Shown piece after piece: positions 4,131-63,615 of a stretch of 64,000 nucleotides of DNA (the stretch's first letter is position 1; each line of letters starts with the position of its first letter). The notes under the pieces were generated by a model. It saw nothing but the letters and a program-made list of their open reading frames with translations, made no database searches and had not been told where the DNA came from. The DNA is taken from the NCBI GenBank assembly GCA_964016885.1, contig OZ024740.1, positions 24,242,001-24,306,000 of the forward strand. The letters are read 5' to 3'. This stretch comes from Eledone cirrhosa (Eukaryota). Made by a program: the position numbers and the translations under genes.

Positions 4131-4270
4131 TCTACGATGATAAATAATAACTCTCTCTCTATTTATATATATATGTATATCGGATAGGATGTTGTAAAAA
4201 CCAGTTAGACCTTAACTCACCAGAGTACTCGATACTTGTGGTAGTAGAGTGGGTAATATGAAAAGAGTCA

Positions 4271-4635: not shown

Positions 4636-4671
4636 TCTTCTGATGAGGGACTACCGTCCGAAACGTTAAGA
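4636..4671 (+). ncRNA. Minimal type I HHR in a solo pLTR
   Basis: TCTT-CTGATGA-GGGAC-TACC-GTCC-GAAA-CG-TT|AAGA. Related copy at 60337-60372. Confidence 0.85.
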
Positions 4672-5609: not shown

Positions 5610-5688
<79 letters not shown>

Positions 5689-5880
5689 GTATAGGATTAT
5701 CCAAGATGTAGTAATGGTTAATTACTACACTGGATATGGTTGACGTACGGTAAGAGGTTACTCTACGAGTTATGGAAGAATTGTTCAAGAAACTTAGTTC
5801 CTGATCCTTCAGTATTCCGGAGTGTATATAAAGAATGAATAATAACAGGTTGACATCATAAAAAAGTAATTTATTCCGTG

Positions 5881-5992
5881 TGCTTACAAGTGTTTCCACG
5901 GTGGTACTGCAGCCTAGTTCCGCTACGTGCAAATTCACAAGTACTTGCAGAACTCGAATATCCAATGCTGTGACCACTGTTTCCTCAGAGCA
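5881..5992 (-). ncRNA. Type I HHR with ~85-nt extended stem II
   Basis: TGCT-CTGAGGA-[ACAGTGGT..CAGC..AGTTCTGC...GCGGAACT..GCTG..ACCACCGT]-GAAA-CACTTG-TA|AGCA. Sense to the ORF. Confidence 0.8.
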
Positions 5993-6487
5993 GTATGGTA
6001 AATGTACAATGTAAATACCCTTAAGTGGGGTTGTTGGGGAAGATAGAGTAGAACAGGAAGAGAGAAAAGTAGGGAAGAGGGAGAGAGAAAGAAAGATATG
6101 CAGGGGTTGGAGAAGTAGGAGAGAGTGGCTTGTAGATATCTTAATCAAAATGTTATGGTAGGGGTTTTATTATACTGGTTACTTTTGGAGAGATGCGTTG
6201 ATAGTTAAGGTCGGAATTATTTATTGCCCCAGAGGGCAGGTTCATAGATGTTGAGAGGGAGGTAGGTCAAAGGTGAGAGAGAGAGAGTGTAATGGATGTA
6301 GAGAGAGATATAGGTAGAGAGGGGACAGATAAAGTATGTGTGGTGAGTGAACTTTTGGTTTTGTAGTAGTAATCTAGGAATTGCACTGAGTTACCATGTA
6401 TAGTGATAAGCAGTGTATTGTCTTGTAGTGTGGGGGGAAGAGAAGGTTGTTAGCTAGAAAGGGGTGTTATAGTTACGGGTTTGAATG

Positions 6488-7686
6488 TTAAGTTATTTTA
6501 TAGTGAGAGAATTTAGTTTTTAGTTTGTGGTTGCAGTATAATGATCGTTCAATTCTATCGTTAAGTAGTTTGTTTTTGGATTTTAATATGTAAAATAGCT
6601 CAAGGTTACATAACCTGCAGTACTTCAATCCACTCCGATATGCACTTGCGCTGGAAAGTATATCCCATTTTAAGGTGAACTGTTGGTTGTGTTCACGGAG
6701 TTGCCAGGTCTTGTTGGCGAGCGTGGTCACAAAACGGTGATTCGGATGTTTGATTGAGAATCGATGACGGTACCAGCGAGATTTAAACGATGTGGTGGTA
6801 GATCCGATATAATACCATTTCTGGTCGTTCGATTCAACCGTGCATTGGTAAACAATGTTGGACTTTAGGCATTCATTCTGCAATGGACATCTTTCAGGTA
6901 GATGGCAGTTACATTCTTTGTTGTGGGTAGCGGGTATACCATGGATAGTTTGTGATAGCGGTACAGGTGGGTTGTGTAATACCCGTCTCCCATTTAGTGG
7001 TTGGGAGGCAGATATTGCGTTCTGCCCATCTGTTACTAAAATGTTTTGTTTTGTAGAGTTGTTTAATTGCCTTAAGTTAAGTTTTTTTATGTATGCTTCA
7101 AGGTTTGGTGCCGTGGAGTATGATAGTCTAATAGTTTTAGTGTTCAGAATTTTGCTGTATTTATGGGAACTAGGGAAGTGTTTGTTGATTAATTTAAAGA
7201 ATGAAAGAGATAGTTTTGTACTAATCGAGGCATTAAAAATAGGATTGTACCAGATATACTTTCTACAACGTGATTTATTTGGTGGTGATCTTCTATTATT
7301 AGTATGTCTGGTAGTACTGTGTGTGTGTGCTTGTGTTTTAGTCCCCCGGTTACGTATACCTTGATTTCGTGTAGAGCTATGTGTGTTGTGGAAATTCCTA
7401 TCGATGTATTCTATTGTATCCCGGTGGTCAGCATTCCTTAATGCATTATTGTAGTATTCAGCATGTTCACTAAAAATATCAGAGTTAGACGATAGGCGAG
7501 AGATTCTAAGAGAAATACTCCGGGGAACTGATTTGATCATGGAGAGTGGGTGGTTAGAGTTAAAGTTAATATACGTAAGGTTCTCATTTACCTTGTGGAA
7601 GGGTCGTATCTGTCCGGTATTTAAATTAAGAGTTACGTCCAGAAAGTTTACTACTTTAAGATTGTATTCGTATGTTATTTTGTATT
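6488..7686 (-). pseudogene. Naiad-type PLE RT thumb plus GIY-YIG, 5'-truncated
   Basis: VVNFLDVTL...IWYNP...CNCHLPERCPLQNEC..NIVY..YYIGST..FKSRW..CRLCNLE..LLND..CNH. Confidence 0.9.
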
Positions 7687-7780
7687 CGTAGCGGAACTAG
7701 GCTGCAGTACCACCGTGGAAACACTTGTAAGCACACGGAATAAATTACCTTTTTATGATGTCTACCTGTTATTATTCATT

Positions 7781-7864
<84 letters not shown>

Positions 7865-9661: not shown

Positions 9662-9846
9662 GTTGGATTGGCAGTATCGGTAGAGGGTCGGACGCTATGC
9701 TTTGACGTAGAGAGTTACGGCCCTATCATTCTGAGTTCAAATTTCGCCGAGGTTAACTTTGCCTTTCATCCTTACGGGGTCGATAAAATAAAGTACCAGT
9801 AATGCTCTGGGTAATTGCTGGCCTTGTGCCAAACGTAGAAACAATT
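9662..9846 (+). mobile_element. SINE family A (different head subfamily)
   Basis: TGGCAGTATCGG A-box, GAGTTCAAAT B-box, same core as other family A copies. Confidence 0.88.
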
Positions 9847-9878
9847 ATTAATATTCGAAAAACTCAGATTACATTTAT

Positions 9879-9943
<65 letters not shown>

Positions 9944-9945
<2 letters not shown>

Positions 9946-11735
9946 CCTGTTGAGGGTATTTGCCACAAGTGACGTCAGTGAGATCCCCCTGTAGTTGTTG
10001 GTGTTAGAGAGATCTCCCTTCTTTGGCACTGGGACGATGTTACTGATCCTCCACTGATTCGGGGCAACTCCTTTCTCCAGTGCCTTGTTACAGAACCCCA
10101 GGATGATATCATCAAAATTACACCTCTTCATCACCTCTGATGCCACTCCATTTCTCCATGTGCCTTGCCCTCCTTGATCCTCTTCTTGGCTCTCTGAAGT
10201 TCCTCTCTGGTGAAAGGCTCTGTCTCAATATCCAGTTCTTCAAACAGCCGCCTGATCTCCCCAGTGATCTGGCCTGTGGAGGGTGGCTCTCATAGTAGGG
10301 TCCTAAAATGGTCTAGCCATTTCCTCTTCCTATCCTCGGGCCCCGTTCCCTGGATCTGACTCGAACGTCTTCTCTTCCTCCCTGTGATCTCGTTGATGAT
10401 CATCCAGCTCTCCTTACATCCAGATCTGTCAACAGCTCTCTTCACACTTCTGATCATCTCTATCAGTGCCTCCTCTCTGGCCTCAGTGTAAGCGGTACAG
10501 GGTTCTTCCCTCATTACCACCACAGTCTCCACCCTCTGCTCCGTAGGATCAGCATAGTATTGGTCCTTGGCAGCTTTCAGGTGTTCTCTGGCTGCACACA
10601 CTTTTGGGTTTGCAGAGCTGACGTGCTTCCTTTTGTTCTTTTTCCTCGGCACCAGGAAGGCCTTTGATTCTGTGGACCGTCAATGCCTGATGAATATCTT
10701 ACAGGCTTATGGAATCCCCAAGAAGATAGTGGACCTGATATCACTGCTCTACACCAACACCAAAGCCCAAGTCATTACATCTGATGGGATTCAGAGTTCT
10801 TTGAGATACTGGCTGGAGTGCTCCAGGGAGATACATTGGCTCCCTATCTTTTTATCATCGTAGTGGACTATTGGATTCGCCTTGCACTTGAGAAACACCA
10901 GGACTCTGGCTTTACTGTAGCACCGGCTCAGAGCAGGAGAGTTAAGGCGAAAAAAGTATCAGATGCTGAACTTGCCGACGACATAGTTTTGGTGACAAAT
11001 ACAGTGAAGGAGGTAGAGGATTTGATGCAGGAGGTTGAGATTGTGTCGATGAGTGTGGGGCTGAGAATGAATGAGACTAAAACAAAATATCTGGTAGAGA
11101 ATGTTGAGAAGCCAGAGGGGATCACTTATGTAGGCGGGAAGCCGCTAGAATTGGTTGAGGGCTTCCTGTATTTGGGAGCAAAGATTGGGAATACGGAGGA
11201 TGATGTGGTTGAGAGGAAGAGAAAAGCCTGGGCAGCGTGCCACAGCTTGAGATCGGTGTGGAAGTCGGACCTTCGTAAAAACCTGAAAATCCACCTCTTC
11301 ATTGCTGTAGTGGAGTCTGTGCTGCTGTACGGGTCTGAGACATGGACACTGACCAAGAAACTCACTCAGATGGTGGATGGGTGCTACACGAGAATGCTGA
11401 GGATGGCTCTGAACATTAATCAGTATACACTGAGGATGAAAAACTCAGAGCTGTATGGGATCCTCCCAAAAGTCAGCTCAAATGTGACACAGAGGAGACT
11501 GAGGTTTGCTGTACATGCTCACCGACATCCAGAGTTGACATTGCACTCAGTGCTCCTGTGGGAGCCCCTACATGGACACACTGGAAGAGGAAGACCAAGG
11601 TTAACGTATGTTGATGCCCTAAGGACAGATACTGGTCTGTTGGAGACGAAGGACATGGCAGCGATAATGAGGGACAGAGACCGCTGGAGAGAACTCGTCC
11701 ATGGATCTCTGGAATTCTACCCGCCCTAGAATAGA
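9944..11735 (+). mobile_element. RTE-clade LINE, 5'-truncated and 5'-inverted
   Basis: + strand 10653-11729 gives KAFDSV..GVLQGDTLAPYLF..LADDI..LLYGSETWTL..GRGRP (one frameshift). - strand 10652-9944 gives the upstream part ending IVPVPKKGD..NYRGISLTS. (TA)n flanks. Confidence 0.9.
10653..11729 (+). pseudogene. RTE reverse transcriptase C-terminal part
   Basis: RT motifs from KAFD onward and RTE-like C-terminus, with a frameshift near 10790-10810. Confidence 0.88.
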
Positions 11736-13059: not shown

Positions 13060-13117
13060 ATACCTGATGATATCACCGGATTCATACGGAACCCGGTCAT
13101 TGAAATGATCATAGTAT
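13060..13117 (+). ncRNA. Type I HHR, 31-nt stem II
   Basis: ATAC-CTGATGA-[..ACCGG..TTC ATACG GAA..CCGGT..]-GAAA-TGATCA-TA|GTAT. Confidence 0.85.
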
Positions 13118-13320
13118 AATAAACCTTTCAAGGATTTACACAAATCAGGCCTCCTGTTATTTCATTATAATATTTAACTCCGTAATAGCACCACCAACTA
13201 CAAAAACAAAGACGGTTGAACTGCCTTACTTTGAGTACTCTCTATATTATTGCATTACGATTGATCATACGGAATAGACCAGCTCTATACAGTGGTGAAC
13301 CTCACACCTGAATAAATAAT

Positions 13321-22654: not shown

Positions 22655-22801
22655 TATTTTCCGTTGTGTTGTAATATAAATATTACACACAGTAGATTAT
22701 CAGCTCACGTAGAGTTTGCTCGACGGTTCCAGTTGTAGTTCCAAAAGTAATCCGGAGAAAAATAGAAAGATTTGAATGGATACAGTTTAGTTGAAAGGAA
22801 T

Positions 22802-22922
22802 TTATTGACACGTGTTTCTATAACAGTTACATAACCTGAAAACAGCTGCTATCTACAAAGTTTTAGTTATGCAGACATTCAATATTTCAATGTTATTATT
22901 TACTGTCATTTCATCAGAATAA
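22802..22922 (-). ncRNA. Type I HHR with 92-nt branched stem II (inverted copy)
   Basis: Reverse complement of 24548-24668. Confidence 0.85.
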
Positions 22923-23200
22923 TATTACTGAGGACCTATTTAGTTTTTATAGAGAATATTAGGAGGGAGGGGTGAAGTTGTTAGAAGAATAGTTGAAGGA
23001 GTGGTTTTTCGATAGCAGTGAGAATTCTTGGTGGCAGTGAGTAATTAGATTCCCATCTGTTGTTTTGACATTTTTTATAGAATATATTATTGGTTATTTT
23101 TCTAAATCTATAGAAGGATTAGAGATAGTAAAGATATGCGTGGTTGGTTTTGTGTTTGCACTTAATTAACATTCAGACTTAAATTTTTCTTTCAAGTGTA

Positions 23201-23659
23201 CTCCAGAGAAAACCCAACGTACACAACTATAACTGCACCTATCCTGACAACTGCCCCCTCGGCAATAACTGCCTGGAAAAAAATATTATTTATAAGTGTT
23301 CCATTAAATCCGGAGGCAACGAGTGGTATTACGTGGGATCAACGGCAACATCGTTTAAATCTCGATTGTATAGGCATTCTTACTCAATAAAACACCAGAG
23401 CCAAAGAAATGTAACAACTTTAGCAGAAAAAGCTTGGACGCTCAGGGATAGCGATCAAAAGTTTACCCTAAAATGGGAGAAATTAGCTAAAACCCAAAGC
23501 TTTTCCAGGAGCCAAAATTTCTGCAAATTGTGTAATCTTGAGATTTATTACATAATCACACACAAGAAGAAACTGCTGAATAACAGAATTGAACGAACAT
23601 TATTCTGCCGTCACAGAACTAAAACCCTTTTTTCCCACTACAAGCCGAATATTACATAA
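23201..23659 (+). pseudogene. Naiad-type GIY-YIG endonuclease fragment
   Basis: YNCTYPDNCPLGNNCLEKNIIYKC..WYYVGST..FKSRL..CKLCNLE..LLNNRIE..CRH. Confidence 0.9.
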
Positions 23660-24547: not shown

Positions 24548-24668
24548 TTATTCTGATGAAATGACAGTAAATAATAACATTGAAATATTGAATGTCTGCA
24601 TAACTAAAACTTTGTAGATAGCAGCTGTTTTCAGGTTATGTAACTGTTATAGAAACACGTGTCAATAA
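24548..24668 (+). ncRNA. Type I HHR with 92-nt branched stem II
   Basis: TTATT-CTGATGA-[ATGACAGT..ACATT/AATGT..GCATAAC/GTTATGT..ACTGTTAT]-GAAA-CACGTG-TC|AATAA. Confidence 0.85.
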
Positions 24669-27657: not shown

Positions 27658-27706
27658 GATTCCTGATGATTTCTAAAGAATGAAACAACTCTAGTCCTGT
27701 AGAATC
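27658..27706 (+). ncRNA. Type I HHR with looped stem III
   Basis: GATTC-CTGATGA-TTTC-TAAA-GAAT-GAAA-CA..TG-TA|GAATC. Ends just before (TA)n. Confidence 0.75.
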
Positions 27707-33144: not shown

Positions 33145-33246
33145 GCCGTCGGGGTCATACTTGTTCCTATTACCCATTCTACTACCCTAAGTATTGAGTA
33201 TTTTGGTGCGTTATGGTCCATCTGGTTCCTTACCACATTTCCTTCG

Positions 33247-33308
<62 letters not shown>

Positions 33309-36795: not shown

Positions 36796-37359
36796 TAAAG
36801 CATGTCTATAGAATCACCAGATAAAATATATACCATTTCCTCTCCCAATTAGCATAATTAACTAAATAAAATATCGAATAGACCAGGCTATAAGAATAAG
36901 GCTTCTATGAAGAAATCTCCAACAAATAACCGAAACTAGCCCTTCGCGTCGGCCGCCACGGAATATTTATCGAATATTTCGACATCGTAATCGCCCAGAT
37001 ACAGTCAATTAAACAAAATTAGGTGTAAAATAAACTAGGAGAAAATAGAATACATTTATTTACCTCTAGCATGGTTTCGTCCGCATTTTGAGATTTCCAA
37101 TAACTTTGGAACTCGAGAATCAGACTCTTCAGGAGTTTTCTCTGATCTAAACATTAAATTTTCCAAAGTGATCGCGCCAAGAATTAATTCAAAAATGGCT
37201 AAGAATCGTGACGTAGCAGCGGTCAGGTTGGAAGGGATGTGGTAGTTGCTTACGGCTGGTGGGTTTTTGCTAGAAAGCACAGCACAATACAGCCAAATTT
37301 GTATCTCAACCTAATGGGTGATTATTACATATAAATGTTTCATATATATATATACATAC

Positions 37360-37646: not shown

Positions 37647-38277
37647 TGTATATATATATATATGTAAACCTTTATATATATATATATATATATAACGAAG
37701 GAAATGTGGTAAGGAACCAGGTGGACCATAACGCACCAAAGTACTCAATACTTGAGGTAGTAGAGTGGGTAATAGGAACCTTTTGGCCCCTTTTGTTGAC
37801 CCGTCACCGTATCATTTACGTACTTATACCTCTTAAAAGGGTCCTTGCCTAATTCGTCCCACCTAGTTCTTTTACTTATTTCGTTATTTCTTTATTTATT
37901 TATTTCTTTACTTCTTTCTTTCTTTCTTTATTTTATTCTAGCCTAACAATAGCCTGAGACCTAGGTCGTAGAATTTAATTTACTTTACTTTTTTCTTTAC
38001 ACTTATTTGCTTTTCTTCACTCTCAGTACTTTTTCTTTCCTATTTCTACCCCCCATTGTTCTACCTACCGTTCCGACTTCCTCCCCCTCCCCCTCCCCTG
38101 TATCTTCTTTGACCTAATGCCCAGCTGTAGCTGGCACTACCAACGCTGGATTGGGTCTACTCCACCCCCTCCCCTCTTTCTCCTACTGGCAGGTTTAGCC
38201 ACCATCTCCCCTACTAATTTGCAACCACAGAATTACTACTGATTTTTGACAATCACTTTGACCATATATGGAATTAC

Positions 38278-38419: not shown

Positions 38420-38502
38420 GGAGGTGAGTTTTATTGTAGTACAATAAAGCAATGCAGATATCGGATAAGAAGCACTCTACAGTTTGTAGGACTGGAGTAT
38501 AC

Positions 38503-38809
38503 ATAATATAAGATCAAAAGATGGTTAAAGGAGTTCCATGTATTTTATTATGCGCATTTCAAAAACAAACATCATCATGCAATAATATTTGTGTTTTCAT
38601 AACATAAAACAGGAGAACATGATATGAAGGCTAAAGAACACTTGTGGATATGTTGATTTAAAACTGCACTATCCACAAGTGTTCTTTAGCCTTCATATCA
38701 TGTTCTCCTGTTTTATCTGATGAAAACACAAATATTATTGCATGATGATGTTTATTTTTGAAATGCGCATAATAAAATACATGGAACTCCTTTAACCATC
38801 TTTTGATCT

Positions 38810-38866: not shown

Positions 38867-39133
38867 CACGCACTCATACGTACAGACACGTATATATATA
38901 TATATATTCAAGCCGTCGGGGTCTTGAACGTTTTTCTATTTACCACTCTACTACCCTAAGTATTGAGTAGTCTGGTGCGTTACGGTCCACCTGCTTCCTT
39001 ACCACACTTCCTTCGTTATATATATATATATATATATATAAATATATATATATAACAAAGGAATTGTGGTAAGGAACCAGATGGACCATAACGCACCAGA
39101 GTACTCAATACTTAGGGTAGTAGAGTGGTAAAT

Positions 39134-39288
39134 AGGAAAAAGTATGACCCCGACGGCAGAGCTCAAGCCGCTTCGACGGCTATTTCTAGACTAAAATTAG
39201 AATTTTTAGCCTGGTGAATAAATGCTAATTTTAGTCCAGAAATAGCCGTCGAAACGGCTTGAGCTCTGCCGTCGGGGTCATACTTTTT

Positions 39289-45533: not shown

Positions 45534-45614
<81 letters not shown>

Positions 45615-45658
45615 TAAACAAATAATGAATAAACAATTCCTTATATTAAACATAAAAA

Positions 45659-45813
45659 TTCATTATTTAACGATCGTTTCTAGGGTATATATGTGTTATA
45701 ATTGGTATGCATATTCAACAGATCTATGTACAAAATTATACAAAATTATACAAATTATCAAGATTAAATATACATACCTAACACATATATACGCCGTCTT
45801 CAGAAATAATGAA
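45659..45813 (-). ncRNA. Type I HHR with 116-nt rod-like stem II (3' pLTR)
   Basis: Reverse complement of 57467-57621. Confidence 0.88.
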
Positions 45814-46638
45814 GTATATTTATTGATAATAACAACAATTCAAAATATCAGTTCAAAATTGACCAATGAAAACACAAAAGGGTTAAAAGCAGTTCGGTGT
45901 GTGTATATACATGTAAAATCCTTACACATATTTTACAAAAATGTGTGTATAATTTGTATACGCATACTAAAAAGATGGATGCAAACACAAAATTTCAAGG
46001 TTAATATCTCTGTAAGCTTAATGCGCTGATAAGATGCGCATTGATACTTATGGAGTCAAGCATATAAATATATTTTTTCATACTCACACATATCAGTATA
46101 ATCACACATACATGCGCGTATATGCATAAATATACACATAACCACGAACATACAAACACACACACTCCCCCACTCACATTTATATATGTGGATATAAAAT
46201 CATAAGCACATAGAAATTAAATCACTCACATAAAACACTGGCACACACATTTCAAGATCAAGATACAGAAATTAGGTGGGAGGGGGGGAGGGGTCAGTAT
46301 TCAATTGTCTGAGCAGACTGCCTAATATAAATGTATCTATAAATTAAGAAAAATAAAAAAAATAAAACAATAAAATATAATAACTATAATATAATATATA
46401 TACACATACAGATATATAAACACACATACATACATGTACGCACACATAGAGATATTTACGCATACACCCATACACACATACATATACAGTCATACACACA
46501 CATACACTTACACGAACATACACATACACATATAAAAAGATATATATATACACACACACACACGCGCAACACATACACACATACACATATATATAAAAAA
46601 AATAGATAATAAAGATATATATCCCTATATATATAAAT

Positions 46639-46687
<49 letters not shown>

Positions 46688-47010
46688 TATATACATACAT
46701 ATACATATACATACACATACATCTAAATATACATACACATACATACACACATACATGTACATACATGTACATACATATGCACCTACTTATACTCATATAT
46801 ATAAATACATACGCTTCCATAAATGTGTATATACATAAAAAACAATACAACCTCACCAAACTCAGACATACAAATAAAGATAATAATAAAAAATAATAAT
46901 AAAAAGGCATATGTATATACATACACACACGCATTAATAGATATATATATATATATATACACATACATACACATATATATATACATACACACACACATAT
47001 ATACACACAC

Positions 47011-47051
<41 letters not shown>

Positions 47052-47061
47052 CACATAGACT

Positions 47062-47098
<37 letters not shown>

Positions 47099-47547
47099 AT
47101 ATATATCCACACACACATACCACCATAAAAACACATACAAACACCCACATGTATATATATTTATATATATATATATCCATATACACACACGTACATATAT
47201 ATACATATATATACATACATATATATATATACACACACACACATAAAAAACAGACATGCACATATATATATATATATATATATATTTTATTACTCTTATA
47301 TATACACATATTATATATACATACACAACCTCACTTATACACATATACACATAAGTTATATTATAATAATAAAGAATAATATACATATATATATATACAT
47401 ATACATATATATATATGTATATATATACATACATACATACACATACATACATACACATAAACATATACATACATAAATACATACATACTAATAAAGACAT
47501 ATATTCACACATAGACACCTATATATATATATATATATATATATATC

Positions 47548-47598
<51 letters not shown>

Positions 47599-48748
47599 AC
47601 ACACACACACACACACAGACACACATACACACTCACATATATATATATATATATATGTGTATGTGTGTGTGCGCACATACACATATATACACACACACAT
47701 ACAAACACACACAAACACATACATATGCATACGTGCACACACACACACATATATCACATAGATACGAAGATAAACATATAAATAGAGAGACATACATATA
47801 TATACACAACACACATACACATACATACATACACGCATATACATATACATACATATATACACATATATATATTCATATATATACAAGCATACACATACAT
47901 ACACATATATACACATACATACACATATACATACAACACATTCACATACACACACATATATAATGCATATATATACATATATATACATACATATGTATGT
48001 ACAATCATATATACACACACAATCTTACATTCATATTTGCATGCTCATATATGTATTTCTATATTTAGATATAAATACCCAAACCTATATAGACACCTAC
48101 CTACATATATATTCATACATAGACGCTTACAAATACAGATGATAATAGTATGGGGGAAAGGGGGGGTTTGGAGAAGGGGATCAAAGTAAATATATGTTTC
48201 AAGAAACATATAATATTTTCCGTATCTTAATTCAATGTATGTTCTTACATACTTTCAGTGCTAGGAAATACGAAATCTATGCATCTCAAAATAAATAAGT
48301 ATACCATTAATCATATGCTAACTAAACCAAAGATAGCCAACATATTGATTTCTAAGGTGTAAATTAGTTAGGTTTATAATATTTGAAGCAGAATTTTGAA
48401 GTCAAACAGTAGTAGATTATTAATTACAGTATAACTAAATTAAAGTTAATAACGTTATGGTATCAATATTAGGAGATGAATTTAGTAATAGGGAAAAGAA
48501 ACCCAAATAAAAATAAAATAAAATAAAGTATTACATCGGTAGTAGCATATAAATTATATGTTAACTAAATTAAAAATTATATATTTATTACAATAGTATA
48601 CGTTAATTAGTATATGTTAATTAGGTATACAATACATAAAGCAGATATTGTATTTCATCAATAGCATAATATAATTATATGCAAATAGAAATCAAAATTA
48701 ATACGCATACATATACATATACATACACACACACATATACATACATAT

Positions 48749-48789
<41 letters not shown>

Positions 48790-49324
48790 CACATATACAC
48801 ATACATACATACATACAGATACACATACACAACACACACATATACATACACATATACATATACATATCTTTTTCAAAAAATTGCACAGAATATATTAACT
48901 AGGTATATATCCAAAACACATCCCATTCTATGATTACATGACATTCTGCAATTCGTCTGTATAAGGATACTAATTTTAAGCAAATTAAAATTAAAATTTT
49001 TAGGTTGATTAAAACTAAAACCAAATAATAAATATATTTCCAAAATGTATATTAATTATGTCTATAATACTAAAAATTATTTCTCCGTCATTGGAAACAT
49101 GATATTATTTTGCTATATTTTATCTGTAAAAGAATTATAATAAAAGGTTTAAATAAATTAAAATTAATCTATAAATTAAATTACTAAGTATATATTAGTA
49201 ATATTTAAAGGTTTTTCACAATTTATGATTACATAATATTTTCTCATCTGTAATAAAATATTAATTAAATTAAATTTATAGGTTAACTAACATTTAAATT
49301 AAATTAATTTCTAGAATAATGTTA

Positions 49325-51766
49325 TTAATTAGGTTTATAATATTTAAATGTTTTTTTTAGTTTATGATTACACGATATAATTAATTCCTGTCGTTTATTT
49401 AATAAGATATCCTTAGACTTCATTATTTCAAATAGTTCTTGGGAACATAATCTACATTCCTTTCTATTATTTTGATAAGGGGTGGCTCTTTTGAGCACAC
49501 TCCAGGTCAAATCATATTTTATATTCTTATTTTTATAACTATTAATTTTTTCTGCTAGAGATGTTGTATTAGCCAGTGCGGCATTTTTAAAACTATGCTT
49601 GTGGGTATTAAACCTTGTCTTAAAATTGTTAGAGGTAGCTCCTATATATGAGCAAATAGAATCTTTAGTTTTAACATTACATTTATAGACTATGTTGTTA
49701 ACAAGACAATTCCCTTTTAATGGGCAGTTTGTTTTGTTTCTACAGTTACATCCTTTCGTTAATTCTGTATTTGAGGAGATATTATTGTTAATTTGATGTA
49801 CTGGTGGTATACTTATGGTTTTCTTACATTTATATGCATTATATGCACTTATATTTTGTTTTATGTTATTTGTTGTAGAGTATGAGAATTTAACTGTAGA
49901 CCTATTTAAGATTTGATGGTATTTGTGGTTTGGCGGGAAGTTTTTCTCAAGGATATAAAAAAATTTTTTAGCAATATTATCCTTAACTTGTAAATTAAAA
50001 GGAGCATTATACCAAGTAACTCGTCTATTACGGTTTCTATGTTGTTTATTATTTTTATTATTTTTATAGGTTGTATCATGATTTTTACTAGGAGGATTAA
50101 TGTTAATGATCTCACCACAACTATTTTTAGTTATATTTGTAGATTTAGGTGTTTTATCTTTTTTATTAGGAGTTTTATTATTAATATTTATTATAGTTGT
50201 ATGATGAGTAGTTTTTTGAGGGTTACTATACTTTATATTAGAAGATTTAGTATTTTGGGGTATATTGTGGGTGGCATTTAGGTGTGTACTTTTCATTTGG
50301 TGTTTGTTGGTAATATTATGCTGTATGCTTTCAGTATTTTTAGTAGAAGGTATATACTCTAATCTATTTTTGTGGCCACTTCTATCTAGAGCTTCATTAT
50401 AAAAGGTCGCATTTTTATCAAATACATCTTGGTTAGAAGAAAGGTTAGAAATTCTAAGTGATATATTATATGCAAGGTTTTTAAGGATAGATTTAGGGTG
50501 ATTAGATTGTGAGTGTATGTAATGTAAGTTTTGGTTAGGTTTATGGTAAGGTTGGTATATACCCGTAGCTAAATCTAAAGTTATATCTAGGAAATTTACT
50601 ACTTTACTTGTTTTTTCAAAAGTAATATTAAGATTATAATAGTCTTTAAGGAAAGTTCTAATATGTTTTTTGTTTTTTTCGATTTCTGAAAGGCTAAGGT
50701 TGTTAGAAAGAAGAAGACAGTCATCACGATATAAACCACCTTTGAGGTGGGGAAAAGAGGCATTTATGTTGAAAAGGAGAAAGAGGCCCACAAGATCAGT
50801 AATTTGGGCGGAATCGCTTGAACCCATAGTAATATCAAAAAGATTACTGTATGTGTTTCTGGTCCAGTATTCATTCTGAAATTCAATAAGTGTTAGTCTA
50901 GCATGTGTAATAATGTTAATGTCATCCGAAGTTAAATTAGATCTATTTTTAGCAAATATTAATGCTTTGTTCAGGAGTATAGGTGATATAGAAGAATAGT
51001 AATTATCTATATCAAATTGTAGGAAAGAAGCAGAAGATTTACACCTAATATTTTTAAACCAGTTAATTACCTGGGAGGTGTTTTCCCAGAGTGGTAAAAT
51101 AACGTGTTTTCTTATTTGTGGGATGACTCTATCTAAAATTTTTTTGCTAATTATTCCAATATCTGATTTGGAGGGACATATAAGTCTAATAGAAGGATTA
51201 GAGTTAAAGTTAGATTTGTGATCTTTCAGGTTGAAGTGTGGTCTTTTCAATGCCAAAGGTTCAGTTCTATCTTCAATGTTTAGTTTTTTTACTATGTTGT
51301 GTGTTTTGTTGTTGATGTTGGTGAGTGACACATTATTAGATTTTTTATAATTTTTTCTGAGTTCTTTATATATGAACTCATTATAATGTTCAATATCCAT
51401 ATGATACAAGTTACCAGTTTTGTCCGAGTGGACATGGATTTTTTTAGACTTTTTTAGGTCCAATAGGGTAGAATCAAGGTCCTTTTGAAAGACGGATTTA
51501 TACTTTTTAAATTTGAGGTGTTTAATTAAATTAAAAAGGTCTTTCTCGAAGTCTTCAAGTAAAAAGTTGTGTGGTGGATTCTTGTAAGTATTGAAATCAT
51601 ACATATATTTCCGATCTGCTTTTTTAGATTTCCTATCGAAGTGGTAGGCTCTCCATCTAACCCTTCTGATAAAATTATTAGTTTTCTGAATCATAAGGAG
51701 TAAGAAGTCGTCCTTAGAAGGTATTGGTATGTTTTTTAAGGAGGTTCCTAAATATTGTTTTTCCAT
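49325..51766 (-). CDS. Penelope-like (Naiad-type) reverse transcriptase / GIY-YIG endonuclease, ~813 aa
   Basis: Uninterrupted ORF from the first ATG: SLKNIPIP, DKTGN, LKDHK..P.IRLI, FDIDNYY, MGS.DSA, LYRDD, VNFLD, WYNAPF, CNCRNKTNCPLKGNC, NIVY..YIG, RF..H, CRLC..E, LLNKR.E..CNH. Confidence 0.95.
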   Translation of the reverse strand: MEKQYLGTSLKNIPIPSKDDFLLLMIQKTNNFIRRVRWRAYHFDRKSKKADRKYMYDFNTYKNPPHNFLLEDFEKDLFNLIKHLKFKKYKSVFQKDLDSTLLDLKKSKKIHVHSDKTGNLYHMDIEHYNEFIYKELRKNYKKSNNVSLTNINNKTHNIVKKLNIEDRTEPLALKRPHFNLKDHKSNFNSNPSIRLICPSKSDIGIISKKILDRVIPQIRKHVILPLWENTSQVINWFKNIRCKSSASFLQFDIDNYYSSISPILLNKALIFAKNRSNLTSDDINIITHARLTLIEFQNEYWTRNTYSNLFDITMGSSDSAQITDLVGLFLLFNINASFPHLKGGLYRDDCLLLSNNLSLSEIEKNKKHIRTFLKDYYNLNITFEKTSKVVNFLDITLDLATGIYQPYHKPNQNLHYIHSQSNHPKSILKNLAYNISLRISNLSSNQDVFDKNATFYNEALDRSGHKNRLEYIPSTKNTESIQHNITNKHQMKSTHLNATHNIPQNTKSSNIKYSNPQKTTHHTTIININNKTPNKKDKTPKSTNITKNSCGEIININPPSKNHDTTYKNNKNNKQHRNRNRRVTWYNAPFNLQVKDNIAKKFFYILEKNFPPNHKYHQILNRSTVKFSYSTTNNIKQNISAYNAYKCKKTISIPPVHQINNNISSNTELTKGCNCRNKTNCPLKGNCLVNNIVYKCNVKTKDSICSYIGATSNNFKTRFNTHKHSFKNAALANTTSLAEKINSYKNKNIKYDLTWSVLKRATPYQNNRKECRLCSQELFEIMKSKDILLNKRQELIISCNHKLKKTFKYYKPN

Positions 51767-52108
51767 TGTGATATGGATGATGGACAATTGAAAGAGCTCA
51801 ACTAAATGTATATGGGTTTACAAAATCATACATATATATATGTTTATACATAAATATAAAATTAATACACACATACAGTACAAAAATACGAATATTTCCG
51901 TGAAAATAGGAGCAAAATTATGTAGATAAATCTACCAAGAGTTTACGGTAGTGTCCAATCCGTATGAAGAACTCAATGTATTCCGGATATCATGGAAAGA
52001 AGAGATGCAATGAAAATCCACTTTCGGTGAAAGACAAACGGTATACAGAGTCAAGATAAAATATTAAACAAATAATGAATAAACAATTCCTTATATTAAA
52101 CATAAAAA

Positions 52109-52263
52109 TTCATTATTTAACGATCGTTTCTAGGGTATATATGTGTTATAATTGGTATGCATATTCAACAGATCTATGTACAAAATTATACAAAATTATA
52201 CAAATTATCAAGATTAAATATACATACCTAACACATATATACGCCGTCTTCAGAAATAATGAA
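52109..52263 (-). ncRNA. Type I HHR with 116-nt stem II (5' pLTR)
   Basis: Same sequence as 45659-45813, upstream of the ORF. Confidence 0.88.
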
Positions 52264-52624: not shown

Positions 52625-54317
52625 AAAAACCTTGCATATAATATATCACTTAGAATTTCTAACCTTTCTTCTAACCAAGATGTATTTGATAAAAATGCGA
52701 CCTTTTATAATGAAGCTCTAGATAGAAGTGGCCACAAAAATAGATTAGAGTATATACCTTCTACTAAAAATACTGAAAGCATACAGCATAATATTACCAA
52801 CAAACACCAAATGAAAAGTACACACCTAAATGCCACCCACAATATACCCCAAAATACTAAATCTTCTAATATAAAGTATAGTAACCCTCAAAAAACTACT
52901 CATCATACAACTATAATAAATATTAATAATAAAACTCCTAATAAAAAAGATAAAACACCTAAATCTACAAATATAACTAAAAATAGTTGTGGTGAGATCA
53001 TTAACATTAATCCTCCTAGTAAAAATCATGATACAACCTATAAAAATAATAAAAATAATAAACAACATAGAAACCGTAATAGACGAGTTACTTGGTATAA
53101 TGCTCCTTTTAATTTACAAGTTAAGGATAATATTGCTAAAAAATTTTTTTATATCCTTGAGAAAAACTTCCCGCCAAACCACAAATACCATCAAATCTTA
53201 AATAGGTCTACAGTTAAATTCTCATACTCTACAACAAATAACATAAAACAAAATATAAGTGCATATAATGCATATAAATGTAAGAAAACCATAAGTATAC
53301 CACCAGTACATCAAATTAACAATAATATCTCCTCAAATACAGAATTAACGAAAGGATGTAACTGTAGAAACAAAACAAACTGCCCATTAAAAGGGAATTG
53401 TCTTGTTAACAACATAGTCTATAAATGTAATGTTAAAACTAAAGATTCTATTTGCTCATATATAGGAGCTACCTCTAACAATTTTAAGACAAGGTTTAAT
53501 ACCCACAAGCATAGTTTTAAAAATGCCGCACTGGCTAATACAACATCTCTAGCAGAAAAAATTAATAGTTATAAAAATAAGAATATAAAATATGATTTGA
53601 CCTGGAGTGTGCTCAAAAGAGCCACCCCTTATCAAAATAATAGAAAGGAATGTAGATTATGTTCCCAAGAACTATTTGAAATAATGAAGTCTAAGGATAT
53701 CTTATTAAATAAACGACAGGAATTAATTATATCGTGTAATCATAAACTAAAAAAAACATTTAAATATTATAAACCTAATTAATAACATTATTCTAGAAAT
53801 TAATTTAATTTAAATGTTAGTTAACCTATAAATTTAATTTAATTAATATTTTATTACAGATGAGAAAATATTATGTAATCATAAATTGTGAAAAACCTTT
53901 AAATATTACTAATATATACTTAGTAATTTAATTTATAGATTAATTTTAATTTATTTAAACCTTTTATTATAATTCTTTTACAGATAAAATATAGCAAAAT
54001 AATATCATGTTTCCAATGACGGAGAAATAATTTTTAGTATTATAGACATAATTAATATACATTTTGGAAATATATTTATTATTTGGTTTTAGTTTTAATC
54101 AACCTAAAAATTTTAATTTTAATTTGCTTAAAATTAGTATCCTTATACAGACGAATTGCAGAATGTCATGTAATCATAGAATGGGATGTGTTTTGGATAT
54201 ATACCTAGTTAATATATTCTGTGCAATTTTTTGAAAAAGATATGTATATGTATATGTGTATGTATATGTGTGTGTTGTGTATGTGTATCTGTATGTATGT
54301 ATGTATGTGTATATGTG

Positions 54318-54358
<41 letters not shown>

Positions 54359-55508
54359 ATATGTATGTATATGTGTGTGTGTATGTATATGTATATGTAT
54401 GCGTATTAATTTTGATTTCTATTTGCATATAATTATATTATGCTATTGATGAAATACAATATCTGCTTTATGTATTGTATACCTAATTAACATATACTAA
54501 TTAACGTATACTATTGTAATAAATATATAATTTTTAATTTAGTTAACATATAATTTATATGCTACTACCGATGTAATACTTTATTTTATTTTATTTTTAT
54601 TTGGGTTTCTTTTCCCTATTACTAAATTCATCTCCTAATATTGATACCATAACGTTATTAACTTTAATTTAGTTATACTGTAATTAATAATCTACTACTG
54701 TTTGACTTCAAAATTCTGCTTCAAATATTATAAACCTAACTAATTTACACCTTAGAAATCAATATGTTGGCTATCTTTGGTTTAGTTAGCATATGATTAA
54801 TGGTATACTTATTTATTTTGAGATGCATAGATTTCGTATTTCCTAGCACTGAAAGTATGTAAGAACATACATTGAATTAAGATACGGAAAATATTATATG
54901 TTTCTTGAAACATATATTTACTTTGATCCCCTTCTCCAAACCCCCCCTTTCCCCCATACTATTATCATCTGTATTTGTAAGCGTCTATGTATGAATATAT
55001 ATGTAGGTAGGTGTCTATATAGGTTTGGGTATTTATATCTAAATATAGAAATACATATATGAGCATGCAAATATGAATGTAAGATTGTGTGTGTATATAT
55101 GATTGTACATACATATGTATGTATATATATGTATATATATGCATTATATATGTGTGTGTATGTGAATGTGTTGTATGTATATGTGTATGTATGTGTATAT
55201 ATGTGTATGTATGTGTATGCTTGTATATATATGAATATATATATGTGTATATATGTATGTATATGTATATGCGTGTATGTATGTATGTGTATGTGTGTTG
55301 TGTATATATATGTATGTCTCTCTATTTATATGTTTATCTTCGTATCTATGTGATATATGTGTGTGTGTGTGCACGTATGCATATGTATGTGTTTGTGTGT
55401 GTTTGTATGTGTGTGTGTATATATGTGTATGTGCGCACACACACATACACATATATATATATATATATATGTGAGTGTGTATGTGTGTCTGTGTGTGTGT
55501 GTGTGTGT

Positions 55509-55591
<83 letters not shown>

Positions 55592-56010
55592 TGTCTATGT
55601 GTGAATATATGTCTTTATTAGTATGTATGTATTTATGTATGTATATGTTTATGTGTATGTATGTATGTGTATGTATGTATGTATATATATACATATATAT
55701 ATATGTATATGTATATATATATATGTATATTATTCTTTATTATTATAATATAACTTATGTGTATATGTGTATAAGTGAGGTTGTGTATGTATATATAATA
55801 TGTGTATATATAAGAGTAATAAAATATATATATATATATATATATATGTGCATGTCTGTTTTTTATGTGTGTGTGTGTATATATATATATGTATGTATAT
55901 ATATGTATATATATGTACGTGTGTGTATATGGATATATATATATATAAATATATATACATGTGGGTGTTTGTATGTGTTTTTATGGTGGTATGTGTGTGT
56001 GGATATATAT

Positions 56011-56047
<37 letters not shown>

Positions 56048-56057
56048 AGTCTATGTG

Positions 56058-56098
<41 letters not shown>

Positions 56099-56443
56099 GT
56101 GTGTGTATATATGTGTGTGTGTATGTATATATATATGTGTATGTATGTGTATATATATATATATATCTCTATTAATGCGTGTGTGTATGTATATACATAT
56201 GCCTTTTTATTATTATTTTTTATTATTATCTTTATTTGTATGTCTGAGTTTGGTGAGGTTGTATTGTTTTTTATGTATATACACATTTATGGAAGCGTAT
56301 GTATTTATATATATGAGTATAAGTAGGTGCATATGTATGTATGATTATATATCTAATTCTATGTATGAAGGTACATCTATATATATATGTATATATACGC
56401 GTGTATGTAAGTAGTGTGTGTATGTATCTATATGTCTATGTGA

Positions 56444-56491
<48 letters not shown>

Positions 56492-56592
56492 CGATGTGCG
56501 TATATGTATGTACATGTATGTACATGTATGTGTGTATGTATGTGTATGTATATTTAGATGTATGTGTATGTATATGTATATGTATGTATATA

Positions 56593-56641
<49 letters not shown>

Positions 56642-57808
56642 ATTTATATATATAGGGATATATATCTTTATTATCTATTTTTTTTATATATATGTGTATG
56701 TGTGTATGTGTTGCGCGTGTGTGTGTGTGTATATATATATCTTTTTATATGTGTATGTGTATGTTCGTGTAAGTGTATGTGTGTGTATGACTGTATATGT
56801 ATGTGTGTATGGGTGTATGCGTAAATATCTCTATGTGTGCGTACATGTATGTATGTGTGTTTATATATCTGTATGTGTATATATATTATATTATAGTTAT
56901 TATATTTTATTGTTTTATTTTTTTTATTTTTCTTAATTTATAGATACATTTATATTAGGCAGTCTGCTCAGACAATTGAATACTGACCCCTCCCCCCCCT
57001 CCCACCTAATTTCTGTATCTTGATCTTGAAATGTGTGTGCCAGTGTTTTATGTGAGTGATTTAATTTCTATGTGCTTATGATTTTATATCCACATATATA
57101 AATGTGAGTGGGGGAGTGTGTGTGTTTGTATGTTCGTGGTTATGTGTATATTTATGCATATACGCGCATGTATGTGTGATTATACTGATATGTGTGAGTA
57201 TGAAAAAATATATTTATATGCTTGACTCCATAAGTATCAATGCGCATCTTATCAGCGCATTAAGCTTACAGAGATATTAACCTTGAAATTTTGTGTTTGC
57301 ATCCATCTTTTTAGTATGCGTATACAAATTATACACACATTTTTGTAAAATATGTGTAAGGATTTTACATGTATATACACACACCGAACTGCTTTTAACC
57401 CTTTGTGTTTTCATTGGTCAATTTTGAACTGATATTTTGAATTGTTGTTATTATCAATAAATATACTTCATTATTTCTGAAGACGGCGTATATATGTGTT
57501 AGGTATGTATATTTAATCTTGATAATTTGTATAATTTTGTATAATTTTGTACATAGATCTGTTGAATATGCATACCAATTATAACACATATATACCCTAG
57601 AAACGATCGTTAAATAATGAATTTTTATGTTTAATATAAGGAATTGTTTATTCATTATTTGTTTAATATTTTATCTTGACTCTGTATACCGTTTGTCTTT
57701 CACCGAAAGTGGATTTTCATTGCATCTCTTCTTTCCATGATATCCGGAATACATTGAGTTCTTCATACGGATTGGACACTACCGTAAACTCTTGGTAGAT
57801 TTATCTAC
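52625..57808 (+). mobile_element. Inverted 5'-truncated copy of the same Naiad
   Basis: 52625-53782 encodes the identical C-terminal ~385 aa. It mirrors 45607-50482 apart from a 171-bp indel, and extends to the equivalent of 51920. Confidence 0.95.
57467..57621 (+). ncRNA. Type I HHR with 116-nt rod-like stem II
   Basis: TTCATTATTT-CTGAAGA-[..GTATATATGTGTTA GGTATGTATATTTAA...TTGAATATGCATACC..TAACACATATATAC..]-GAAA-CGATCG-TT|AAATAATGAA. 10-bp stem I, palindromic stem III. Confidence 0.88.
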
Positions 57809-57888
57809 ATATATATATATATATATATATATGATAAAGAACACAAGAGTGTCTACAACATCAAAATATATATATATATATTTTTTCA

Positions 57889-58287: not shown

Positions 58288-59050
58288 TCAGTCCGGAGCC
58301 TTGTAGTTATGCAATAGATGTTTGGTGGCGTGTGGACAACGTGTGAAAAATTCACTTCTCGTGTTTAGCCAATCACTATTGCGTAATCTCTTTAGGATAG
58401 TTATTCGTTCGTCAATACATAAGCCACACGTCGGATTTCCCCTTGCGTATGGCTTGGACTTAGTGATGGCTTTCCCTTGAATTGAATAGCCTATATTTGA
58501 GTCCTTGAGGTACCATACGTCGCTCGCGGGTTTCGTGGATGAACGTCTGTCCGGGTATCTGAAGGTAGACTGGTGGTTCAGGAAACGCTCCTTGAATCGG
58601 CCCTCCGCCATGCCCACATAGGATTTGACCTCCTGTGGTTTGTTTGGTCGGTTGGAAGTGACCACAACTTCATAGATTACAGCTGGTGTGTTGCATTGCT
58701 GTTGAAGGGGGCAAGCTTCAGGCTGGGGTGTTGCTCCTAGGGCTGCTGGTGAAGTGGGCCTTCATGTTCTTAGCGCAGGAGTATCCTAGTTTAACTTTGT
58801 GTCGGTTAAAGATGGAGCAGTATTTATGACCTATGGGGAAGTGTCTATCTAAGAGGGCTAGACATTTTTTTCCTACATTGGTTTTAACGTTGAGTGAGAA
58901 GGGAGGAGAGAACCAGATAGTTTGTCTATTGATGCGCTTACTTTTCTTAATGGTGATGTTGCTAGTAGGAGAGTAGGTGATAGGTTGTGAGAAGCCGCTG
59001 TTAGCCAACGCCGTGTTATAGTAGGGTGCCGCCCTGTCAAAGATAGCCTT
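58288..59050 (-). pseudogene. Naiad-type thumb plus GIY-YIG remnant
   Basis: IWFSPPFS.NVKTNVG..IFNRHKVKLGYSC; after a frameshift CPLQQQC..VIY..YVG..FKERF..CGLC..E..LNTRSE..CPH. Confidence 0.9.
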
Positions 59051-59198
59051 ATTTTCAACCTAAAAACTTTCCGGAGTTTCGCAGTTATCTCTCTTACACC
59101 TCTCGCACGCAGTCTAGTATTGCTTGTGTGAAGTGACCGAGTTTCTGCGCATGCGCGTTCATACGGTTGTCCTTCCTGTTCCTATAACCATACACATC

Positions 59199-59238
59199 CC
59201 GAGCTGAAGATCCGCGAAGGTGAAACAATTGTTCTCGG
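59199..59238 (+). ncRNA. Minimal type I HHR
   Basis: CCGAG-CTGAAGA-TCC-GCGAA-GGT-GAAA-CAATTG-TT|CTCGG. Confidence 0.82.
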
Positions 59239-62152: not shown

Positions 62153-62393
62153 TAAAACCATATTTATTATATTATATATATTTCAATGGGTACCAATATT
62201 TTGGTACGCTATCGTCAAATAAAATACAATAATTGGTTTACAGATAATGACATATCTACATATGAACTTAATGTTATGAGTTCAGATGTCGATATGTCAT
62301 GATCTGTAAAACAATTATTGTATTTTATCTGACGATAGCGTACCAAAATATAAGTACCCTTGAAATATATATAATAAAATAAATATAGTTTTA
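62153..62393. mobile_element. Diverged snap-back palindrome with HHR
   Basis: Arms ~62153-62257 and ~62286-62393. Confidence 0.8.
62321..62381 (+). ncRNA. Type I HHR
   Basis: TATTTTAT-CTGACGA-TAGCGTAC-loop-GTACCCTT-GAAA-TATATA-TA|ATAAAATA. Confidence 0.78.
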
Positions 62394-63063
62394 AAAAGAG
62401 AGTATCCATTTATTAATATTATTGATATTATACTCCAAAACTTGTCGAGTACTTCTAATCAACACATTAAATAATTCATTGTTATTCAATTCTAAATAGA
62501 TATTATATAAGAGTCTTCATTCTATTTTATAAGCAATTTCATAATATCTCTGCGCATGAGCACATCATTCTTTATATCAAGTGTATATTCTCAGTATTTC
62601 AAAGTCCCATCTCTCGGTTACGTATATTGTTTGGTTACATACATATGCCGGTCTGGTAAAACCTGAAAAGCTGTTTTCAAACTATATAGTTTTAAAAAAG
62701 GGTAAAAAGATGTCCCGGTCCATTTGCTTAATAGTTTAAACCCCTAATCGATATCTGTGATATATGAGGTTCAATACCTCATAGCAGCCGATCGCAATTT
62801 TCCCACATCTTTTAAGGGTCTTCACACCTTTTTTATAAGCTATTGCACATCATCCTTCATATTGATACGTTTTTTTTGTTTGTTTGTTTGTTTAAAGCGG
62901 ACAATTTCATTATTGATACTTTATTTGATCCACCCCGTAAGGTTAAAAAGCTAATCTAACCGTGGCAAGATTCGAATTCAGAAGGTAAATGATCGGAACT
63001 AAGCATGTTGCCCGATGCTCAACCAATACTGCCAATACATCATTCTCTATGTATGATATATAC

Positions 63064-63279: not shown

Positions 63280-63615
63280 TTTGTGTATGATATATAATAA
63301 GAAATCGTTTTGGTTGTTGATGACTTTAGGAATGTCCTTTTTTTTTTCTCTTGTCTTGTGGTATATATATATATATATTTATAATGAATATACATTATAT
63401 ATATATATATAACGAAGGAAATGTGGTAAGGAACCAGGTGGACCATAACGCACCAAAGTACTCAATACTTAGGGTAGTAGAGTGGGTAATAGGAACGTGT
63501 GTATATGTGTGTGTGTATGTGTGTAGGTATGTATGTATGTATTATGGTGTTAAAAATAAAACAAAACATAACACAGGAACGATAGAAAAACCACAGACCT
63601 TCCACCTCAACTCTA

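Follow-up and report, generated by a model that had tools for sequence, protein, structure and literature searches.

Craig et al. (2021, PMC8557442) described Naiads as Penelope-like elements (PLEs) whose endonuclease is N-terminal and which carry a DKA motif, and reported no canonical hammerheads in them. In the same report, the Hydra clade is defined by a C-terminal endonuclease without CCHH, by the RWK, DKT and CxCx5C motifs, and by a late CxxC and CxH. Hydra elements target (TA)n, their hammerheads were readily detected, and a size below 3 kb is a tendency that is not diagnostic (PMC8557442). According to the published Hydra table, stem II measures 12-26 nt in 26/26 rows from 25 families (hand count), with 23 nt in the octopus family, and the longest stem II tabulated for any clade is about 54 nt (hand count; PMC8557442). 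The core search in that article used a spacer of 7-17 nt. For the minimal hammerheads of PLEs, Cervera and de la Pena (2014, PMC4209133) reported low but real cleavage as dimers.

The window analysed here is the whole stretch of 64 kb. The hammerhead under study lies 500 nt beyond the stop of the ORF at 6488-7696(-), on the same strand. Parsed on the reverse complement of 5881-5992, it reads, in minus-strand order, UGCU, CUGAGGA, a spacer of 85 nt, GAAA, an octamer with GUA at its end, and AGCA, with a stem I of 4 bp. CUGAnGA, GAAA, a UH site and a closing stem I were all present. An earlier sequence-only reading had proposed this motif, with an 85-nt stem II and sense to the ORF, and the motif is confirmed as real. 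Cleavage is predicted between 5885 and 5884 from the known hammerhead core. Throughout, stem II length denotes the nucleotides between CUGAnGA and GAAA, for which our descriptor permitted up to 300 nt. Type I parses with a long stem II (at least 60 nt) numbered six copies of three families in the window, versus 0.17 per shuffled window (60 window shuffles, maximum one parse).

The Rfam hammerhead models gave no match at 5850-6030 at E up to 10. Over the window, no hammerhead was among the matches listed (150 of 321); these were microRNA models on simple repeats throughout, and every one fell below gathering. The repeat finder output was dominated by microsatellites. An Rfam scan of nine sources returned no hammerhead at the gathering level. 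Since the short control motifs in eight loci and in the window also scored below gathering, Rfam is non-discriminating here.

The coordinates of the features are collected in Table 1, in which the families with an ORF are named A to D, A being that of the hammerhead under study. Families B, C and D span 22.7-24.7 kb, 45.6-57.8 kb and 58.0-59.3 kb, respectively. Family C is probably young, judging from its intact ORF and nearly identical copies. Its 3' UTR of 3.5 kb is microsatellite-rich and occurs in direct and inverted copies (45606-49325(-), 53782-57811(+)). Three further families lack an ORF, and no ORF remnant was found near their pLTR fragments; they have perfect 8-nt palindromes and the Hydra tail hairpin described below. 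The motif at 27663(+), with a stem II of 12 nt, lies downstream of Neptune-type ORF fragments and is, by position, a candidate Neptune pLTR. Together with it, more short hammerhead cores at 4640(+), 60368(-), 16771(-), 18640(+), 33605(-) and 34063(+), with 12-14 nt in stem II where measured, belong to no fewer than four additional families. The 64 kb thus hold more than 10 hammerhead-bearing families. A hammerhead-like core at 37132(-) has a 47-nt stem II built on another basal architecture, and its stem III is poor. Non-LTR RT ORF fragments with an inversion at 9772-11729 are unrelated to the hammerhead finding.

Table 1. Coordinates of hammerhead, tail-hairpin and ORF features (window positions, except where a locus is named)
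Feature	Position	Strand	Remark
Type I minimal hammerhead, family A, whole motif	5881..5992	-	Descriptor parse
Catalytic core CUGAGGA, family A	5982..5988	-	Stem I 5' strand, 5989-5992
Stem II, family A	5897..5981	-	85 nt
Conserved basal helix of stem II, family A	5973-5980 with 5898-5905	-	A.C mismatch at fourth position
GAAA and stem III octamer, family A	5885..5896	-	Octamer, 5886-5893, imperfect palindrome
Stem I 3' strand, family A	5881-5884	-	
Tail hairpin, family A	5760..5823	-	64 nt; starts just past short terminus
Tail, family A, long end only	5686..5825	-	About 140 nt; abuts (TA)n
Hydra-type ORF, family A	6488..7696	-	5'-truncated, stop-free; 402 aa stop to stop
Inverted truncated pLTR copy, family A	7687..7789	+	101/103 identical
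Hammerhead, family B	24548..24668	+	92-nt stem II
Second hammerhead copy, family B	22802-22922	-	
Endonuclease fragment, family B	23183-23659	+	
Tail hairpin, family B	22718-22758	-	41 nt
Hammerhead, family C	52109..52263	-	116-nt stem II
Other hammerhead copies, family C	45659-45813; 57467-57621	-; +	
Full ORF, family C	49325-51817	-	813 aa
Tail hairpin, family C	57679-57759	+	81 nt
Hammerhead, family D	59199..59238	+	11-nt stem II; same-window control
ORF pieces, family D	58288-59059	-	
ORF-less Hydra-type pLTR fragment	13060-13117	+	31-nt stem II
ORF-less Hydra-type pLTR fragment	38709-38779	+	36-nt stem II
ORF-less Hydra-type pLTR fragment	62321-62381	+	26-nt stem II
Further window tail hairpins	38474-38498; 62432-62450; 13177-13236	-; +; +	
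Locus tail hairpins, among others	L002:837-856; L006:1780-1801		

The sequence-only reading had labelled the element a Naiad, which its domains contradict. The family A insertion occupies 5686-7789 and has (TA)n at both ends, as is typical of Hydra insertions. Its ORF, whose first few codons derive from the inverted piece, consists of the end of the RT, the thumb and the CxCx5C linker, followed by a C-terminal GIY-YIG. The GIY-YIG follows the RT thumb (profile positions 376-703) and stands at the ORF end in the full family C; the endonuclease is C-terminal to the RT in families A, C and D. Family A carries CxCx5C at 262, CxxC at 360 and CxH at 388. Its DKT/RWK region is missing by 5' truncation, and its clade-mate C has RWR, DKT (residue 115), CxCx5C, CxxC and CxH. 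The first Cys of CxCx5C is missing from families B and D in these window copies. As for a CCHH zinc finger, families A to D all lack a CxxC inside their GIY-YIG span; CKGC precedes the YIG in the Neptune-type fragment. The short-element tendency of Hydra (<3 kb) is not seen in family C, with its 2.4-kb ORF and 3.5-kb 3' UTR. With a C-terminal endonuclease and a CxCx5C linker, and with DKT in place of DKA in its clade-mate C, family A is a Hydra-clade Penelope-like element and not a Naiad, the published reference proteins having been compared by eye. No close relative of family A emerged from a 90%-cluster search, in which the best identities were ~35-40% over most of the query; a 50%-cluster search gave 37-43% identity among the top matches.

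Three of the four ORF-bearing families have a long stem II, as had been read from the sequence, with 85, 92 and 116 nt in A, B and C vs 11 nt in D. Our outside sample comprised 17 loci with Hydra-type ORFs from one genome contig scan, which gave 19 endonuclease segments from 14 loci and none from three loci. These retroelements (L001-L017) are located in contigs of GTDB metagenome-assembled bacterial genomes and are probably animal host DNA in bacterial bins. With the same 300-nt descriptor, a hammerhead was present downstream in 16/19 segments, and every stem II measured 12-31 nt. Two of the other three segments reach contig ends, one with a cut-off 12-nt motif, and the third is a remnant without a hammerhead. 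Hammerheads in Hydra PLEs were already known, and the new part is the size. Neither a giant stem II in PLEs nor the tail hairpin was found in print, in a search that had subscription journals and bioRxiv supplements outside its range.

The sequence-only reading had also suggested that the long stem II is a trait of one subclade, and we mapped stem II length onto endonuclease and RT trees. Among the database homologues used for the trees, DKT was present in 94/116 and CxCx5CP in 49/116. In the endonuclease tree of 23 rows, A, B and C fell on one side of a branch with support of 100/96, and 0/500 label shuffles were as clustered as the long-stem families. When 94 database homologues were added, the long-stem clade had an SH-aLRT of 92. 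AU tests rejected two groupings, (A,B,D) with p 0.018 and (C,D) with p 0.012; a clade (A,B,C,D) was not rejected (p 0.076), and family D forms a long branch. In the RT tree, for which the best 40 of 140 homologues were combined with 10 loci, family C and a 32%-filled family A, A and C grouped with six database proteins at 99, and 10/10 short-stem loci lay outside. L003, with a stem II of 31 nt, appeared as sister of the long clade weakly in one tree (68/79) and was contradicted by the other. The suggestion of a single clade survives, with two amendments: the clade is Hydra, and length looks graded and not all-or-none, since the ORF-less families share the basal architecture with a stem II of 26-36 nt. 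A subclade trait within Hydra is partly supported. As there is one transition in one host, the trees show clustering and not causation, and with a single origin in one host window the effects of clade and host are inseparable.

The base of stem II is conserved in register among the long-stem families. Counted from the core without gaps, offsets 2-9 were paired in 7/8 positions in A, 8/8 in B and 7/8 in C (22/24 cells in total), and registers slid by 1-3 gave 5-12/24 pairs. Double-sided changes were seen in 13/24 pairwise comparisons across A, B and C. All three families are mismatched at offset 1, and at offset 4 they have a mismatch or G.U. A mismatch at offset 4 also occurs in the three ORF-less families (26, 31 and 36 nt) and in only 1/15 locus motifs. 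Beyond the base, the similarity of stem II is weak, with uncorrected p values of 0.044 (A-B), 0.23 (A-C) and 0.015 (B-C), and we found no distal sequence or loop common to A, B and C. An apical UGCA stem occupies a matching register in A and B, and the apex in C holds a short tandem repeat. At 5938-5947(-), the apex of family A stem II contains a 10-nt palindrome.

The nested helices of the sequence-only reading were reproduced in part when stem II of family A was folded in isolation. GUGGU/ACCAC formed with a pair probability of 0.97-1.0 and CAGC/GCUG with 0.8. The third helix, AGUUCUGC/GCGGAACU, forms in just one of two equally stable folds (-23.6 kcal/mol; probability about 0.5). The alternative has an apical UGCA/UGCA stem, and the distal fold is ambiguous. 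The inverted pLTR copy starts inside stem II and ends at the short terminus in (TA)n. Its first position, 7687, lies exactly 3' of the alternative apical helix, as if reverse transcription had stalled there; this is a single event.

Stem II energies relative to shuffles were unremarkable in A (z -0.9) and low in B (z -3.4) and C (z -7.8). The end-to-end closure of family A stem II was, in contrast, remarkable, being as high in 2/300 shuffles. The unconstrained fold of the 112-mer of family A is not a hammerhead and is better by 2.6 kcal/mol (-26.0 vs -23.4); the free fold with flanks missed the hammerhead too, and a free folding scan does not recover the motif at 5881-5992 (z -0.42). An extended stem I with an internal loop was absent from the constrained folds of family A. 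Duplex energies between stem II and the stem I flanks were set aside, as they came without a shuffle control. Of the three long-stem families, the family A copy folds least well. In stem III, the octamer pairs at 6/8 positions in A, where it is imperfect in both copies, and at 8/8 in B and C; B, C and D each have a perfectly palindromic octamer. The stem III dimer energy was -1.1 kcal/mol in A vs -4.1 to -17.7 kcal/mol in 14 motifs other than that of A; it was about -10 kcal/mol in B and C. With its imperfect octamer, the family A copy is therefore the weakest example. Relative to two free monomers, the computed double hammerhead was favoured in B (-5.9), C (-12.2) and D (-3.8) and not in A (+0.3 kcal/mol). 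It was never the best predicted dimer, and in A it lay 11 kcal/mol above the best.

The lengthening of stem II is paralleled elsewhere in the elements. The distance from stop to core was 500, 894 and 3522 nt in A, B and C, vs 191 in D and 80-194 at 11 loci; that of B includes microsatellites and was seen in one copy. Thumb inserts of the long-stem families measured 56 and 118 aa vs a median of 24 in 96 homologues. Downstream of the hammerhead we observed a further hairpin, in which a 2-nt 3' bulge separates a 4-bp outer stem from a variable inner stem. This tail hairpin is 64, 41 and 81 nt long in A, B and C vs 18-27 nt in 14 locus rows. Stem II and tail-hairpin lengths correlated (rho 0.79, p 0.036) over seven window families, which are not independent, with one exception, a 31-nt stem II with a 60-nt tail hairpin.

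The alignment of the tail hairpin comprised 19 rows, 14 taken from loci by the outer motif alone and five from the window by eye. The inner three positions were paired in 53/57 cells, vs 15-23 for other bulge sizes, and paired changes were found in the outer stem too. A first pattern search matched 18/27 locus copies, and most misses were short-end copies that stop ahead of the hairpin. The fixed-register pattern occurred at 13 places in the window vs 0.73 in shuffles. In 10/10 families with both ends (nine by script, one by eye), the short terminus falls at a TA-rich site no more than about 6 nt upstream of the hairpin; the conserved tail hairpin marks one element terminus. TCCGGA(A/T)TAC was considered as a clade marker and rejected: it is the 5' arm of the tail hairpin in A and B, and its 3'-side position in C makes the homology there doubtful. 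The members of a short repeat family flanked by (TA)n and bearing the tail-hairpin pattern (4189-4262, 33163-33247, 37695-37779, 38912-39157 and 63412-63496) are possibly tail-only PLE derivatives. The tail hairpin offers a testable handle on how PLE termini and tails form.

The explanation that we consider probable is a working, dimer-acting pLTR hammerhead of a Hydra-clade element, from a subclade in which stem II has grown outward on a selected base, its distal extension being tolerated. As in other minimal type I PLE hammerheads, two units, either in tandem on one transcript or on separate RNAs, would pair via the palindromic octamers of stem III, and the core of each would cut after the UH (GUA) of its partner to yield unit-length RNA. 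The long arm would then be left 12 nt from the 3' end of the released RNA. Because genomic copies extend 40-200 nt beyond the cut site, and so cross it, the template would have been either uncut or re-ligated into a circle. Selection would hold the first ~nine stem II positions in register and the extension folded back, which would let both core halves meet. Past the base, length and sequence would be largely free and may have drifted upward alongside other parts of the element; tolerance of engineered aptamer insertions at stem II has been described (PMC8002509). Four observations count against this explanation: the long helix of C is nearly perfect, which is more than closure of the base strictly needs; A and B keep the apical UGCA stem in the same register; the double hammerhead of A has no advantage over free monomers (+0.3 kcal/mol) and its stem III dimer reaches only -1.1 kcal/mol; and the origin is a single one in one host.

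The first two of these observations would fit a distal extension that has gained a job, as a protein handle, a 3'-end protector, or a contact in folding or dimerisation. Such a role would also suit the strong distal pairing in B and C, and an arm ending 12 nt from the predicted cut on a cleaved, non-polyadenylated RNA. The apical palindrome of A may be cited in its favour, yet, roughly estimated, it would arise by chance in about 7% of cases, and neither B nor C has a counterpart at its apex. Moreover, nothing distal, be it sequence or loop, is common to the three families, relatives with a short stem are mobile and widespread, and stem II showed no more complementarity to the tail hairpin than shuffles did, the longest loop-loop match being 3-4 nt. 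We regard a distal job as unlikely. Somewhat less credence is due to the idea that the ribozyme of family A, or of this copy, is weakened or dead and the motif a decaying relic. The octamer imperfect in both copies, the free folds of the 112-mer that miss the hammerhead with or without flanks, and the z of -0.9 for stem II agree with decay. Against it, the core is intact, stem I differs between A and B by two double-sided changes, the basal helix is 7/8 paired, the ORF is stop-free over 402 codons, and central stem III mismatches are common, occurring in many Hydra motifs.

A chance parse, or a small element inserted in a normal stem II loop, is very improbable. Long gaps do permit chance parses, at the rate seen in the shuffled windows, and a few long-gap parses occurred in outside loci away from pLTR positions. 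Both versions are largely ruled out by the location of the motif, which in each of the three related families is the one expected within a pLTR, and by the covarying base in fixed register. Stem II was not found as an independent repeat in the window or the 17 loci; its matches within the window were its own copies and one 23-nt, microsatellite-like match. A Naiad identity, which would contradict the report of Naiads without canonical hammerheads, has next to no probability. The common (TA)n insertion preference and nothing else speaks for it, and domain order rules it out: the endonuclease is C-terminal in A, C and D, C has DKT, RWR and CxCx5C, and the GIY-YIG span lacks CxxC, all in agreement with the Hydra description. 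The published Naiad result is not overturned.

It is also conceivable, though in our view doubtful, that the pLTR of Hydra works as an RNA device of two parts, the hammerhead and a hairpin that positions the RT/endonuclease, both arms having been lengthened in this subclade and kept as protein handles. The hammerhead would cut or circularise the transcript, and the bulged hairpin would place the telomerase-like RT/endonuclease at a TA-rich site, by which the short terminus would be fixed. If true, PLE priming would have its first defined cis signal, and giant-stem hammerheads would be hidden in PLE families scored as ribozyme-free. The long-stem form escapes Rfam and short-spacer descriptors. 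The graded series of 26, 31, 36, 85, 92 and 116 nt on one base amounts to a natural truncation experiment on the requirements of stem II.

Several described systems resemble the long-stem families in part. As in Naiads (PMC8557442), there is a (TA)n preference, a tandem and inverted structure and an occurrence in cephalopods; unlike here, the Naiad endonuclease is described as N-terminal with DKA, without a canonical hammerhead. At the 3' ends of Naiad_Ovul and the preceding entry, we saw by eye no GAAA after CUGAUGA (PMC8557442). In Naiad_Ovul, GAAAC stands ~25 nt upstream of CUGAUGA, in type II order, by eye (Supplement S5, PMC8557442). The PLE-X hammerheads of spike-moss have an enlarged stem II too and are flagged as non-canonical (File S2, PMC8557442). 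They measure about 50-54 nt (hand count) and belong to endonuclease-less, Chlamys-side elements (PMC8557442), and their enlargement is separate and smaller. With the minimal type I hammerheads of PLEs (PMC4209133), the present motifs share a short stem I, a stem III insufficient in the monomer, predicted dimer action, the pLTR location and high sequence variability. The "larger than usual" helix II of those hammerheads has, in contrast, 6-8 bp, and their G10.1-C11.1 pair is described as highly conserved (PMC4209133), a position that is mismatched in A, B and C.

The closest match is Hydra itself as described in PMC8557442. The C-terminal GIY-YIG without CCHH, CxCx5C, (TA)n targets and, in family C, DKT and RW[K/R] agree, as do a sense type I hammerhead near the 3' end and a palindromic stem III, imperfect in A. 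The non-Watson-Crick first position of stem II is found in many Hydra members (PMC8557442). The differences are in size: the tails here are about 110-140 nt vs the 30-40 bp given for PLE insertions, the 3' UTR of the long-stem families is 0.5-3.5 kb, unlike that of published Hydra, and stem II is 85-116 nt in place of 12-26 nt (PMC8557442). The long-stem families thereby extend the natural size range of PLE hammerheads three- to fourfold past the published Hydra table.
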